Shown: piece by piece, positions 1,371-5,410 of the stretch
Layout: each line of letters opens with the position of its first letter
How positions within the stretch are numbered: position 1 is the stretch's first letter
Virus record (IMG/VR): IMGVR_UViG_3300029535_000079
Span: 1 to 5,410 of that record
Length of the DNA: 5,410 nucleotides
Direction: 5' to 3' (one strand)
Source: a virus
Translations under genes and position numbers: made by a program
The notes under the pieces: model-generated
Databases searched by the model: none
What the model was told of the DNA's origin: nothing
What the model saw: only the letters and a program-made list of their open reading frames with translations

Positions 1371-1408
1371 CAGGTGCCATAAATATTTTTATGAAAGGAT
1401 GATGACTT

Positions 1409-1600
1409 CAGGGCGCTACTACTTCTATTCTCGCTACGCTGCTTTCCTTGGTCGGTGAGTTCTTCACGTCGATGATTACTTGGATGGGTCAGCTCATTGA
1501 TTTCTATGAGTCCCAGCCCATTCTCCTCGTTTTTGTGATTCTCACTATCGCGGGCATCGTTCTCCGTATTCTTCGCCGCTGGATTCCCGGTCGTAGTTAA
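1409..1600 (+). CDS. Coat-like protein. Proposed 63-aa product initiating at CAG 1409. The conservative alternatives are TTG 1448 (50 aa) or ATG 1472 (42 aa), all with the same stop.
   Basis: The frame is open from 1406 to TAA 1598..1600 and closed upstream by TGA TGA (1400..1405). The C-terminal part MITWMGQLIDFYESQPILLVFVILTIAGIVLRILRRWIPGRS has an acidic N-side, a TM core and an Arg-rich tail, like a major coat protein. A strong terminator follows. GAAAGGA at 1393..1399 places the expected start 10 nt after AAAGG, which is CAG 1409. ATG 1472 has no comparable SD. Confidence 0.55.
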   Translation, partial: QGATTSILATLLSLVGEFFTSMITWMGQLIDFYESQPILLVFVILTIAGIVLRILRRWIPGRS

Positions 1601-2932: not shown

Positions 2933-4069
2933 ATGAAAACGGTTGTTAAACTTGACTATGCTACATTTGCTTTTGAACAGGGTTCAATTTCTATTCCTGA
3001 AATTGAAGGTGCGCTTGCCCAGTGCGACTTGCATTTTGTGCAGGGTTCCAGCACAAGTGAGAATTCCCCTTACAATTCCCCTGCGGGACTTTTCTATAAG
3101 CCTAACAACGGCGCGAAACAGTGTCCGCACTCCTTGCAAGTGTCTGGTCATGGTTGTGAGCTTTTCCGTCCCACCTTGCCGCGACTCGCGGCACTTATGC
3201 AGGATGAACACGAATTCGGTCACTTTTCCCGTCTTGATTTTTGCTTTGATGTTGTTATGACGAAGCAACGGTGGCGCGAGTTCTATTTTGGTGTCATCTC
3301 TGCTTCTGTCGATGAGATGAATAATCCAGAAAAGGCTCGTAAGGTTCGCAAGTTTATGTATCAGGGCTACGGCGATTCTACTACCATTTATATTGGTCGT
3401 AGAAGTTCTTCTGCGGTCTTCTGCCGTATTTATAATAAGTCCTTGCAAGACCCTGAAAAAAAGCTCTGTGTGTCTTCTGGTGTGTTTCTGGATTGTCCCG
3501 ATGATTCCTATATCATTCGCTATGAGCTTGAGCTTAAATATACTTCTCGTGTTAATTCTTCCGGTCGTACTGTTTATGACCCTTCTCCCCTTTTTTGGTT
3601 TTATTACGAAGACCCAGACAAGCTTTATTCCTATCTTCGTAAAGTTTGGAATCGCTACGGGAACGATTTTCTTCTGCCCGATGGTTGGGAAGATATGGAA
3701 TTTTTGACTGATATTGAAGCTTGTAATATTCAGTTCGTTAAGGACTTATTGCATCCCATTAGTAATGATCTTGCTCAAAAGTTTTCCGTTTCTATTCATA
3801 CTGAGGAACAAAAATTGTCTTATGTCGCCAATACCTTTGGTCATCGTATTATTGATATTCTTCTTTATCGTCCTGATCTTGTTTTTTCCGTTTGTTGTAA
3901 GTGGGAGCGTTTTTACAATGAGAGTCTACCGTTTTCTCCCCTGGCATTTTCACTTGAAGTTTCACAATTCGCTGAGTCTTCGCGAATTGCCGCTGATGAA
4001 TTCCGTGAAGTTGCTGATTTCCCCTCTTCCTTTAGTGAAGATGGGTTTGAAGATATAACTTTATTCTGA
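2933..4069 (+). CDS. Rolling-circle replication initiator, Rep_trans-like (the family of RstA and pT181 RepC), 378 aa.
   Basis: Motifs recognised by eye are N-terminal VKLDYATFAF, then FSRLDFCFDV, CRIYNKS and IIRYELELKY. These fit the pattern of the replication initiation factor family (Pfam Rep_trans) as I recall it. I place the start at ATG 2933 because GAAAGGTGG (2915..2923) lies upstream. The track start at 2891 lies inside the promoter spacer. The gene ends in tandem stops TGA TGA (4067..4072). Confidence 0.75.
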   Translation: MKTVVKLDYATFAFEQGSISIPEIEGALAQCDLHFVQGSSTSENSPYNSPAGLFYKPNNGAKQCPHSLQVSGHGCELFRPTLPRLAALMQDEHEFGHFSRLDFCFDVVMTKQRWREFYFGVISASVDEMNNPEKARKVRKFMYQGYGDSTTIYIGRRSSSAVFCRIYNKSLQDPEKKLCVSSGVFLDCPDDSYIIRYELELKYTSRVNSSGRTVYDPSPLFWFYYEDPDKLYSYLRKVWNRYGNDFLLPDGWEDMEFLTDIEACNIQFVKDLLHPISNDLAQKFSVSIHTEEQKLSYVANTFGHRIIDILLYRPDLVFSVCCKWERFYNESLPFSPLAFSLEVSQFAESSRIAADEFREVADFPSSFSEDGFEDITLF

Positions 4070-4087
4070 TGAAAGGATGGTCGCTTT

Positions 4088-4330
4088 ATGAAGGTTACTG
4101 TAGTTGGTAAGTCCCGCCGCGCTGGTACATCAAAGCAGGGTAAAGACTATGATTTTACTACTCTCATGGCCGAATATTCGATGCGTTCAAACGATGACAA
4201 TGACGGCGTGCAGGTTGATAGAATCAATGTTGATTCTCGCATGATGCCCTATGCGCTCATTGTCGTTGGCGCTATGTATGACCTCGACTTTGACCGCAAC
4301 GGATATCTCCTTGGAATTGAGGAAGTCTAA
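4088..4330 (+). CDS. ssDNA-binding protein, gene V protein (g5p)-like, 80 aa.
   Basis: Size and position directly after rep fit g5p. The N-terminal MKVTVVGKSRRAGTSKQGKDYDF resembles Ff g5p IKVEIKPSQAQFTTRSGVSRQGKPYSL (shared S-[KR]-Q-G-K-x-Y), recalled from memory. AAAGG at 4072..4076 lies 11 nt before the ATG. Confidence 0.65.
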   Translation: MKVTVVGKSRRAGTSKQGKDYDFTTLMAEYSMRSNDDNDGVQVDRINVDSRMMPYALIVVGAMYDLDFDRNGYLLGIEEV

Positions 4331-4366: not shown

Positions 4367-4386
4367 GAGAGCGGTTTGCCGCTCTC
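4367..4386 (+). other. Perfect 8-bp hairpin GAGAGCGG-TTTG-CCGCTCTC, 4 nt upstream of the tRNA 5' end.
   Basis: The inverted repeat is seen directly. There is no trailing T-run, so it is not a classical terminator. It may be a processing or structural element. Confidence 0.5.
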
Positions 4387-4390
4387 ACAT

Positions 4391-4464
4391 GGCGGGGTGG
4401 TGCAACGGTAGCACGTCGCGCTCTGAACGCGAAACTGTAGGTTCAAATCCTAACCCCGCAACCA
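4391..4464 (+). tRNA. tRNA with anticodon CUG (Gln by anticodon) on an initiator tRNA-fMet-like body, with CCA encoded.
   Basis: Manual cloverleaf follows. Acceptor GGCGGGG (4391..4397) pairs with CCCCGCA (4454..4460), with a G1-A72 mismatch. T8 is present. D arm is GTGC-AACGGTA-GCAC. Anticodon arm is TCGCG-CTCTGAA-CGCGA, with anticodon CTG at 4423..4425. Variable region is AACT. T arm is GTAGG-TTCAAAT-CCTAA, with a G49-A65 mismatch. Discriminator is A73, followed by CCA at 4462..4464. The conserved U8, A14, G18G19, U33, GTTC and A58 are all present. Confidence 0.9.
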
Positions 4465-4512: not shown

Positions 4513-5410
4513 GTGAAAAAAAAGCAGCGGTGCTTGTTTAAGCGCTTCGCCGCCCTTCTCGCGTCTCTGATGGTCTCTCTTTCTTTGTGTACTCCTTGTT
4601 TTGCAGCTGACACGGAAATGGTTATGCCGTCTTTAGATGACTTTTATAGTCATCATGGGTCTTGGTTTGTTTGGCGTAAGCTTATTTATAGCGGCATAGA
4701 TTGTTTTGAGCTTCTTTGCTCTCCTATTGCTGTTTCTGGTTCTTCTTATACATTGCCGTATTCTATTTCTTATTCTTCAGATGCGTTTGATGTTTCTTAT
4801 TTAGCTAACGACTCTGGCTTAGCTTATGATTATGCTTGCGCTTTTCCTTATCCTCTTCGTGGTGCTTCTGGTCTTTGGTCTGAACTTCCCTCTTTCCCTG
4901 TTGGTTTTGGCTTTTCCCCTCAAACTTCTGTTGTTCGCGTTTATTCTACTTCTGCTCAACCTTCTGGGACTTATGGCTTTTTAACTTCTTCTTTTAGCCG
5001 TTCAGACCGTAGTCTTTCTTTCGGTAATACTGCCGGTTCTTCTTCTGGCTCTTCTACTGATACTTTAGATTCTTTCACTTTTTCTTCCCCCTTTTATTCA
5101 TATCCTTTTGCTATTCGTGAATCTTCTTCTTCTTCTGCAAGCGGCTATGTTTTACAGGGTGGTGACTCTTCGTTTATTGTTCCTCCTAATGCTTATTCTA
5201 ACTTGAGTAATATAAATCTCAATTCTAATCGTTATCTTTTGGGGACTCATTCTTTTGTCCCTTATCCATCCGGATATACTATTCCTTCTTCTGATATCGG
5301 CTTTGTTTTTGTGCAAAAGCCTTCTTCCTCTCCTGTTTATTCTGCTTCTGCCTTTGATACTACCGCTTCTTTCGCTTTTTCTCTCCTTGTTCCTGCTTCT
5401 CTTTTGCCTG
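4513..5410 (+). CDS. pIII-like minor coat / adsorption protein, N-terminal part. It runs off the window end and continues at 80..357 after circularisation, about 391 aa in total.
   Basis: GTG start at 4513 lies 10 nt after AAAGG of GAAAGGTGG (4497..4505). The frame is open from 4513 to 5410 by my codon-by-codon read, with an upstream in-frame stop at 4474. The N-terminus VKKKQRCLFKRFAALLASLMVSLSLCTPCFAAD looks like a signal peptide. Ser-rich linker-like runs follow (SSSGSS, ESSSSSASG). The ORF track omits it because it is open-ended. Confidence 0.7.
   Translation, partial: MKKKQRCLFKRFAALLASLMVSLSLCTPCFAADTEMVMPSLDDFYSHHGSWFVWRKLIYSGIDCFELLCSPIAVSGSSYTLPYSISYSSDAFDVSYLANDSGLAYDYACAFPYPLRGASGLWSELPSFPVGFGFSPQTSVVRVYSTSAQPSGTYGFLTSSFSRSDRSLSFGNTAGSSSGSSTDTLDSFTFSSPFYSYPFAIRESSSSSASGYVLQGGDSSFIVPPNAYSNLSNINLNSNRYLLGTHSFVPYPSGYTIPSSDIGFVFVQKPSSSPVYSASAFDTTASFAFSLLVPASLLP
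5332..5410. repeat. Second copy of the terminal direct repeat (same sequence as 1..79).
   Basis: Identical 79-mer at both window ends. It lies inside coding sequence, so it is redundancy of a circular molecule and not an LTR or ITR. Confidence 0.9.

Follow-up and report, generated by a model that had tools for sequence, protein, structure and literature searches.

Comparison of a small filamentous gut phage with its relatives suggests that its coat-like gene is started at a glutamine codon. The DNA that we analyzed (IMG/VR record IMGVR_UViG_3300029535_000079, 5410 nt, referred to as the window) represents a complete circular genome of 5331 nt plus a 79-nt terminal overlap (1–79 and 5332–5410). 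It carries a short coat-like gene with CAG in the place of a start codon and a gene for an initiator-like tRNA with the anticodon CUG. We consider it likely, on the evidence laid out below, that the coat-like protein is initiated at CAG 1409, where a Shine-Dalgarno (SD) element would direct the ribosome and the phage's own tRNA(CUG) would read the codon. This proposal was already made in an initial annotation of the window; the coding frame, the features of the tRNA and the codon–anticodon covariation across clades now lend it support. It also seems probable, with somewhat less assurance, that the filamentous phage lineage of gut Clostridia (Oscillibacter and relatives) to which the window belongs possesses a natural orthogonal initiation system. 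In it, an initiator-type tRNA with a drifted anticodon would be matched to a non-AUG start codon of the coat gene, the two co-evolving as the pairs CAG/CUG, CAA/UUG and ACG/CGU, and the protein would start with Gln, Glu or Thr and be made only with the phage tRNA. The elements in question, whose positions agree with those first annotated, are the following:

1393–1399, + strand: SD element GAAAGGA, which forms the 5' portion of the extended SD (A)GAAAGGAGGTG
1399–1404, + strand: ATG ATG, out of frame, 0 and 3 nt past AAAGG
1400–1405, + strand: TGA TGA, in frame, closing the coat frame upstream
1409–1600, + strand: coat-like gene, 63 codons plus TAA (QGATTSILATLLSLVGEFFTSMITWMGQLIDFYESQPILLVFVILTIAGIVLRILRRWIPGRS), just before a strong terminator and a Zot-like gene
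4391–4464, + strand: initiator-like tRNA, anticodon CUG (4423–4425), with a G1·A72 mismatch, A73 and an encoded CCA

A bacterial gene is ordinarily started by a single initiator tRNA (anticodon CAU) at AUG, GUG or UUG. The CAG at 1409–1411 has the SD of such a start site and lacks the codon: AAAGG (1394–1398) is followed by a 10-nt spacer (1399–1408) and then by CAG. The same distance is kept throughout the genome, as the initial annotation had it. In the six canonical + strand genes the start lies 10–12 nt after AAAGG, the − strand gene falls likewise in this range, and 7 of the 10 AAAGG motifs on the + strand sit 10–12 nt before a gene start if CAG 1409 is counted. The coat frame is open from 1406 to the TAA at 1598–1600, which gives 63 codons counted from CAG. 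The two out-of-frame ATGs are probably too near the SD to be used. Their frame stops at 1456–1458 after 19 codons (after 5 codons in the sub-clade L042–L046), and its peptide is not conserved among relatives. ATG 1402 is ATA in L098, ATG 1399 is GTG in several relatives, and no ATG is present there in the clade that has CAA instead of CAG.

To follow the site across relatives, we collected 4 GenBank records, 37 IMG/VR contigs and 85 contigs from ENA, Logan and JGI. In the window's clade, the CAG is unchanged in every contig containing the site, which amounts to more than 120 independently assembled relatives. The whole arrangement, GAAAGG(A/G)TGATG..(C/T)(T/A)T-CAG, recurs in these relatives and, given this recurrence, is not due to chance. 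GAAAGGA (1393–1399) is unchanged across 89 unique relatives, and the 19 bases from 1393 to 1411 are almost invariant (mean entropy 0.08). The first TGA is found in nearly all relatives and the second is replaced by TGT, TGC or TAA in some. Both are lost in L042–L046 and the CAG is unaffected; there the SD is perfect (GAAAGGAGGA) and lies at an unchanged distance from the CAG, the whole site being GAAAGGAGGATGCCTT-CAG with 7 nt between the perfect GGAGG and the CAG. The full extended SD GAAAGGAGGTG is also present ahead of homologues that are initiated at ATG, and these share the geometry of the CAG site (GAAAGGAGGTGTTTTC-ATG). A TGA TGA also occurs at the end of the replication (Rep) gene, within TGATGAAAGGATGG (4064–4090), the same string as at the coat start, and in frame with the next gene, which resembles a single-stranded DNA-binding protein (SSB) gene (ATG 4088). 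This repeat is probably a shared SD context and not a sign of readthrough.

Sequence variation starts right after the CAG and shows a three-base periodicity from 1412 on. The next 3–5 codons vary among Gly, Ala, Thr, Ser and Pro (mostly NCN codons), and indels after the CAG occur only in multiples of three, yielding proteins of 61, 62 or 63 aa. Between MT135305 and MT135293 there are five base differences, all of them synonymous in the CAG frame and including a TCC/AGT serine switch. The column entropies summed by codon position over 1424–1471 (3.8, 2.3 and 12.0) have the same shape as those of the undisputed part of the coat gene (9.2, 2.2 and 32.4). These patterns support the view that the CAG frame is the one translated 5' of the first in-frame ATG (1472), all the way to the CAG. 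Twenty-one codons that evolve as protein-coding sequence precede ATG 1472; the conservation of 1409–1471 among homologues, on which the initial annotation had made its proposal depend, is found. The residues encoded at 1412–1423 and in the corresponding part of the relatives are always small (Gly, Ala, Ser, Thr, Pro; 3–5 in number) and look like a flexible, fast-evolving N-terminal tip, as would be expected for the surface-exposed end of a coat protein.

A wider protein search placed the coat-like protein in a family of 54–71 aa proteins of small inoviruses. Where the window has its Q in the alignment, most members have an ordinary M (e.g. MEGGATTTISTILTAIGTFFTS versus QGATTSILATLLSLVGEFFTS). 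A homologue with a canonical start and the window protein align at their beginnings (MEGGATTT.. versus QGATT..), and Glu is found at this position in many ATG homologues. The coding signature and the N-termini of the family together indicate that the protein really does begin at 1409 or within one or two codons of it, where CTT and CAG are the only codons available; read in the CAG frame, the N-terminal peptide consists of residue 1 followed by GATTSILATLLSLVGEFFTSMITWMGQLIDFYESQPILLVFVILTIAGIVLR. The predicted structure is essentially one long helix (helices 2–35 and 37–58, pLDDT 90.6), Asp and Glu lie in the N-terminal half and four Arg at the C-terminus. The 63-aa protein, as modelled, thus has the layout of an inovirus major coat protein: a single long helix that is acidic in its N-terminal part, hydrophobic in the core and basic at the C-terminus. 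No significant match to it was found in Pfam, in PHROGs, in a PDB sequence search or with Foldseek against the PDB, and single-protein scans of IMG/VR with the coat proteins L049 and P0009 gave no match. The initial annotation had read its beginning as a signal-like segment of a coat precursor. We find no sign of a cleaved leader: the ATG homologues begin where the window protein does in the alignment, and a single helix is predicted for the entire protein.

We then compared the start codon with the anticodon of the tRNA clade by clade. In the site sequences below, lower case denotes the upstream leader with the SD:

Window clade, more than 120 contigs: gaaaggatgatgactt-CAG; tRNA CUG
L161 (MT135288): aaaaggggtgtttttt-CAG; tRNA CUG with a divergent body and C1·A72
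L162/L163 (MT135307/9): gaaaggggtgttctcg-CAG; tRNA CUG with a divergent body and C1·A72
L049, L130–132: gaaaggggctgatcttt-CAA; tRNA UUG
L133 (partial contig): agaaaggatgatgcttt-CAA; tRNA region outside the contig
L143/L144: ggaagggagtgtgacgctt-CAA; tRNA UUG
L166: gagaggagtgtgattact-CAA; tRNA UUG
L136: aagggaggtgctgcTGA-ACG-ACG; tRNA CGU with G1·A72 and U73
L164 (MT135304): gtaaagggggttataatt-ACG; tRNA CGU with C1·A72 and U73
L134/135: ttgaaaggaggtgttttc-ATG, and L140/141: ttgaaaggaggtgttatt-ATG; no tRNA
L142, L165, L167/168, L047: canonical start; no tRNA

Codon and anticodon match in every clade, through at least two switches of the anticodon. The chance that one in-frame codon in an SD window of two or three codons would fit a given anticodon is ∼3/64. 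The relatives that have ATG at the equivalent position, for which the initial annotation had suggested to look, do exist, and they are without the tRNA: ATG or GTG goes together with the absence of the tRNA in the complete or near-complete genomes L134, L135, L140, L141, L142, L165 and L167. In L134/135 and L140/141 (∼5.4 kb) the gap between the SSB-like gene and the g3-like gene, which elsewhere is the site of the tRNA, has only ∼15 nt. Every complete relative outside the ATG/GTG clades carries the tRNA with an unpaired 1:72. The first CAA/UUG case was the sole contig from a scan of GTDB genomes, and in L136 the ACG directly follows an in-frame TGA. We regard this covariation, itself drawn from sequence comparison, as the decisive evidence pointing to a tRNA-matched start codon. 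L161–L163 have two coat-like paralogues in tandem (in L161 3775–4130 and in L162 4323–4675), the first with CAG at its SD-defined start and the second with an ordinary SD-ATG start.

The tRNA of the window was detected by both ARAGORN and Rfam, the latter aligning 4391–4461 at 53 bits with a non-standard 1:72. Pairing at 1:72 is seen in none of 76 unique tRNAs of the family, of which 62 have G·A and 14 have C·A there. From 2:71 to 6:67 the acceptor stem is paired in 100% of them, with G:C at 2:71 in 76/76 and C:G at 3:70 in 73 (U:G in the other 3), and the remaining stems are kept by many compensatory changes. The discriminator base is A in 75/76, among them every tRNA whose anticodon is of the Gln type; the CGU tRNA has U. 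In a BLAST search against 5426 complete E. coli genomes, the best matches of the phage tRNA were tRNA-Met genes in all genomes (median four places per genome). Among them is a tandem of three next to mltA, which we take to be the initiator genes metZWV. The phage tRNA is 77% identical to the E. coli initiator, 70% identical to a clostridial host initiator (the one found beside the prophage remnant described below) and 55% identical to the verified E. coli tRNAGln(CUG). It has the YUG anticodon of an elongator tRNA-Gln and lacks the paired 1:72, the G73 and the tRNA-Gln body; elongators of this type have a weak but paired 1:72 (U1:A72 or G1·U72) and G73, as seen in the G1·U72 and G73 of a tRNA-Gln from a large gut phage. 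The hallmarks of an initiator are a 1:72 mismatch which, jointly with pairs 2:71 and 3:70, is the determinant for the formylase, and three consecutive G:C pairs in the anticodon stem (PMC5389676). The description of the tRNA as initiator-like therefore stands with respect to the acceptor end, A73 and the best match to initiators; the GGG:CCC anticodon stem and A11:U24 are missing, and the anticodon is CUG, UUG or CGU in place of CAU.

The tRNAs with Gln-type and Thr-type anticodons share one scaffold in the acceptor stem and D arm (GCGGGGUGGUGYA ... CCCCGCA), which argues against their being copies of host elongator tRNAs. Readings of the tRNA as an att site or as a host elongator copy were rejected because of this shared scaffold, the compensatory changes in the stems and the direct repeat of the prophage, which lies outside the tRNA. 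A pattern made from the 5' half of the tRNA found, in IMG/VR, the CAG-clade inoviruses and unrelated larger phages (four tRNA-Met(CAU) and one tRNA-Trp), and nothing else. The four tRNA-Met(CAU) genes belong to large gut phages (L150 2800–2873, L157 13712–13785, L158 658–728 and L159 12767–12838). G1·A72 occurs in L150, L157 and L159, and GGG:CCC stems occur in L158 and L159 but not in L150 and L157. One of these large-phage tRNAs matches the class B phage tRNA, defined below, over the first 25 bases. Initiator-type tRNAs with G1·A72 may thus be common in phages of gut Firmicutes.

Several further observations concern the tRNA gene. The CAG clade has two types of tRNA(CUG), class A (GGCGGGGUGGUGCAA..) and class B (GGCGGGUUGGUGUAAUGGUAACAC.., with the anticodon loop UUCUGAG). 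The two classes set L007, L008, L012, L023, L024, L038 and L145 apart from the other CAG-clade loci, and the structural modules are otherwise near-identical, which suggests that the tRNA cassette has been exchanged by recombination. In L035 (1578–1646) the anticodon loop has an extra base (CTACTGAA), and in L113 (1560–1680, 2x coverage) the 5' half of the tRNA is rearranged. The CAG is kept in both, and these oddities may reflect errors of sequencing or tRNAs in decay. U73 is found in the two tRNAs that have a Thr anticodon (CGU; L136 1651–1724 and L164 1557–1632), as against A73 in all tRNAs with Gln anticodons, a hint that the acceptor end has been adapted to another synthetase. Directly 5' of the tRNA, the following element could be read from the sequence; it is possibly a processing or attenuation element:

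4367–4386, + strand: hairpin GAGAGCGG-TTTG-CCGCTCTC

Initiation at CAG 1409 would proceed as follows. The extended SD, GAAAGGA(GG), would position the 30S subunit with the CAG in the P site, where the codon would pair with the CUG anticodon of the tRNA transcribed from 4391–4464 in the same + strand operon. The acceptor end of the tRNA (unpaired 1:72, G2:C71, C3:G70 and A73) would direct formylation and use in the P site and would disfavor EF-Tu and elongation. The CUG anticodon would shift charging from MetRS to the glutamine pathway of the host, which in Clostridia could consist of GlnRS or of a non-discriminating GluRS with GatCAB. The 63-residue protein would then begin with (formyl-)Gln or, if not amidated, Glu. 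The starting amino acid is probably Gln; Glu is possible because Clostridia may use a non-discriminating GluRS with GatCAB. The coat-like protein would be made only with the phage tRNA present. As to the benefit, we can speculate that the requirement for the phage tRNA serves as an expression gate for a membrane-active protein, or that it gives a non-fMet N-terminus to a protein without a cleaved leader. The timing or dosage gate and the pyroglutamate-capable N-terminus suggested in the initial annotation are speculative as well.

Could the coat-like gene instead be started by the host initiator further downstream, at ATT 1427, TTG 1448 or ATG 1472, with the phage tRNA being an auxiliary elongator tRNA-Gln? 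Gene callers do choose TTG 1448, ATG 1472 or an occasional I-to-M variant (P0001–P0008), ATG or GTG is conserved at 1472, ATT is usually present near 1427, and CAG is the commoner Gln codon of the genome (27 versus 15 CAA). Nevertheless, we consider this improbable. The CAG frame has a clear coding signature over 1412–1471, the indels right after the CAG are in frame, and the canonical homologues begin where the CAG sits. None of the three has an SD at a usable distance, as had been noted for ATG 1472. TTG 1448 is not conserved and is CAG in many relatives, for which reason a start there was rejected. An elongator role would moreover leave unexplained the always unpaired 1:72, A73 and the initiator-type acceptor stem, as well as the fact that the anticodon tracks the codon at the SD site. 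A start at the out-of-frame ATG 1399 or 1402, followed by a programmed +1 frameshift into the coat frame within the first three codons, is still less likely. All members of the CAG clade do have an ATG or GTG at 1399 or 1402, a slippery ATG TTT T is seen in L001, and in prfB a close upstream SD stimulates +1 shifting. However, 0 and 3 nt separate the ATGs from AAAGG, and in L042 they are immediately adjacent to GGAGG; the site is not a conserved slippery one (the codon after the ATG is ACT, TTT, CTT or ACA); and between the SD and the codon no out-of-frame ATG occurs in either the CAA clade (L049) or the ACG clades. The frameshift accounts for neither the tRNA nor the covariation. Equally slight is the chance that the host initiator mispairs weakly at CAG or the adjacent CTT, the phage tRNA then being a structural element of the single-stranded DNA or a decoy against a tRNA-targeting defence. 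E. coli does initiate at a low level at many codons, and the phage tRNA is without the three G:C pairs that favor selection in the P site. Yet the product resembles a major structural protein, of which large amounts are needed, codon and anticodon have switched jointly in at least two directions (UUG/CAA and CGU/ACG), and the tRNA is missing exactly where the gene has ATG.

Two other explanations were rejected. If TGA were a sense codon (genetic code 4 or 25) or were read through, translation could start at ATG 1391 (MKG-x-x-LQ...), which is in frame with the coat gene; in L042–L046, where the TGA is GGA, a gene caller gave MKGGCLQ.... We find this hardly credible. There are no in-frame TGAs in 1532 codons as against 22 TGG, and three genes end in TGA. 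Position 1391 is AAG, TTG, TAG, ACG or TCG in many relatives, and ATG 1391, for which there is no SD, overlaps the SD element. The host, moreover, is Oscillibacter, a clostridial genus that uses the standard genetic code. The probability that an assembly or sequencing indel broke a normal ATG frame is negligible. The GGG at 1411–1413 is a short homopolymer beside the ATG ATG, but the same arrangement was replicated in one integrated prophage and in more than 120 independent contigs, which come from many studies, were made with many assemblers and derive from pig as well as human hosts.

Several points nonetheless weigh against initiation at CAG 1409 by the phage tRNA. All support for it is sequence comparison, from which we infer the initiation at CAG, the amino acid carried, the formylation and the biological benefit. 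The invariance of the CAG is weak evidence alone, as the coat gene has CAG and nothing else at its two further Gln codons too; outside the coat gene, 12 of the 16 conserved Gln columns are polymorphic. An out-of-frame ATG at 1399 or 1402 is conserved without an explanation. In some clades other candidate codons are close by: L143, L166, L161 and L162 have an in-frame GTG within the SD or 1 nt past it, L049 and L136 have an ATG 5–6 codons further downstream, and in L164 the ACG is immediately preceded by an ATT. An intact tRNA is lacking in three atypical contigs that do have the CAG: L113, at 2x coverage, has a damaged one, L050 is partial or chimeric, and L076 is a truncated prophage. As to the tRNA, the canonical three G:C pairs are absent, with A:U at 29:41 in 65/76 and C:G at 30:40 in 48/76. 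The pairs 29:41/30:40/31:39 are GC/CG/GC in the window, AU/CG/GC in most of class A, and AU/GC/GC in class B, L049 and L161; AU/GC/GC is listed as a natural initiator variant (PMC5389676). Position 11:24 is U:A in 76/76, not A:U; U11:A24 is also found in the CAU tRNA with a GGG:CCC stem of the large phage L159. Finally, the L136 and L162 tRNAs have an unusual pyrimidine at position 37.

The phage is a small inovirus. It has the small circular genome, Zot/pI-like ATPase, rolling-circle Rep, SSB-like gene and small membrane proteins of this group, and nearly all of its genes lie on one strand. Besides the elements given above, its features are:

2933–4069, + strand: Rep_trans replication protein (PF02486, Pfam)
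4088–4330, + strand: SSB-like gene
4513 (GTG) across the junction to the TGA at 355–357, + strand: long Ser-rich g3-like gene, 392 codons
354–485, 479–643, 643–1257 and 1257–1370, + strand: small membrane proteins
1618–1650, + strand: intrinsic terminator downstream of the coat-like gene, with an 11-bp stem and a T-run behind it, kept in relatives
1674–2288, + strand: Zot/pI-like ATPase (Zot, PF05707, Pfam)
2370–2606, − strand: one small gene
2872–2900, + strand: candidate promoter TTGACA-17-TAACAT (from a consensus scan only, 10/12 matches, with TG)

The candidate promoter heads a + strand operon that runs from Rep through the SSB-like gene, the tRNA and the g3-like gene to the coat-like gene; the tRNA gene thus lies upstream of the coat-like gene in one common transcription unit. 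The closest GenBank records are porcine 'Inovirus sp.' genomes with ∼83% nucleotide identity. Every gene but the coat-like one has a near-perfect PHROG family, so the coat-like gene is apparently left unannotated in the deposited relatives. Between divergent promoter-like sites there is a GC-rich intergenic region (2690–2870) with several hairpins, e.g. at 2691–2713 and CCCGCAAGGGCAAAGCCCTTGCCC at ∼2745–2775, and a 73-nt piece of it (2708–2780) is 98.6% identical in the otherwise diverged L113. This region is a candidate for the replication origin or a packaging signal. One structural module (tRNA, g3-like, coat-like and Zot genes) is joined in L042–L046, L134 and L143 to replication modules that differ from that of the window. 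The replication modules seen with it are Rep_trans (PF02486), Rep_OBD (PF01719) and REP_ORF2-G2P, and some relatives also have an integrase and an HTH repressor.

The host appears to be Oscillibacter from the gut. A 35-kb contig, L145, carries the phage as a prophage whose flanks encode proteins identical to those of Oscillibacter sp. ER4, Oscillibacter sp. and Oscillospiraceae. This prophage is bounded by a 16-nt direct repeat, TATTGCATCCCCTTAG (at 6907 and 12539), and has no integrase gene, so its integration may use recombinases of the host. The truncated prophage copy in L076 has the CAG coat gene without the region from SSB through the tRNA to g3. It lies ∼4.6 kb from a canonical host initiator tRNA (8854–8926; C1·A72, GGG:CCC, A11:U24) and a tRNA-Leu.

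We found no prior report of a natural case in the full-text literature, which contained engineered systems only; the search did not cover all journals. According to the reports on such systems, initiator tRNAs with a mutated anticodon start translation at the complementary codon (10.1101/524249; 10.1101/2021.05.25.445580; 10.64898/2026.04.16.719103), and the amber initiator of E. coli, tRNAfMet(CUA), starts at UAG and is charged mainly with Gln (10.1101/524249). The engineered initiators (tRNAfMet(CUA) and i-tRNA(AAC)) resemble the phage system in combining an initiator body and a non-CAU anticodon with a complementary non-AUG start at the right distance from the SD. They are, however, laboratory constructs, whereas the phage pair is natural, belongs to a 5.3-kb phage, is devoted to one structural gene and is diversified (CAG, CAA, ACG); in addition, the phage tRNAs lack GGG:CCC. 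With bacterial tRNAfMet the phage tRNA shares the unpaired 1:72, G2:C71, C3:G70, G4:C69, A73, U8 and a similar T arm, and its best E. coli match is a tRNA-Met of the metZWV/metY type. It differs in the anticodon (CUG/UUG/CGU, not CAU), in a stem that is not GGG:CCC, in U:A at 11:24 and, across the family, in G1·A72 being commoner than C1·A72.

Other known systems are comparable in part. Suppressor tRNAs encoded by large dsDNA phages of the gut recode the stop codons UAG or UGA in elongation. There, too, a phage's own tRNA alters the reading of codons in late or structural genes, and expression depends on it; the inovirus tRNA, in contrast, is proposed to act in initiation, at a sense codon and in a tiny ssDNA phage. 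Eukaryotic initiation at CUG uses the ordinary elongator Leu-tRNA and special factors. It likewise demonstrates that a non-Met residue can start a protein at a non-AUG codon, but it has neither a dedicated initiator-like tRNA nor a co-evolving codon–anticodon pair. Major coat proteins of Pf3-type inoviruses have no signal peptide, and the window protein is similar to them in its short single helix, acidic N-terminal part, hydrophobic middle, basic C-terminus, lack of an apparent cleavable leader and the strong terminator after its gene; unlike them it is known from its gene alone, and we detected no sequence or Pfam relationship between the two.

If the proposed system is real, the identity of the start codon is not fixed in nature, and a change of the initiator anticodon, so far a laboratory trick, would have been adopted by a phage lineage. 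It would also be a rare case of a 5-kb phage with a tRNA of a specific regulatory or chemical purpose, and it would explain why gene finders miss or truncate the coat-like gene in hundreds of gut inovirus genomes. For synthetic biology, the phages would provide naturally optimized orthogonal pairs of initiator and start codon that work without the three G:C pairs. The finding would further raise the questions of which enzymes charge and formylate such tRNAs in Clostridia and whether a non-fMet N-terminus on a virion surface protein makes a difference in the gut.

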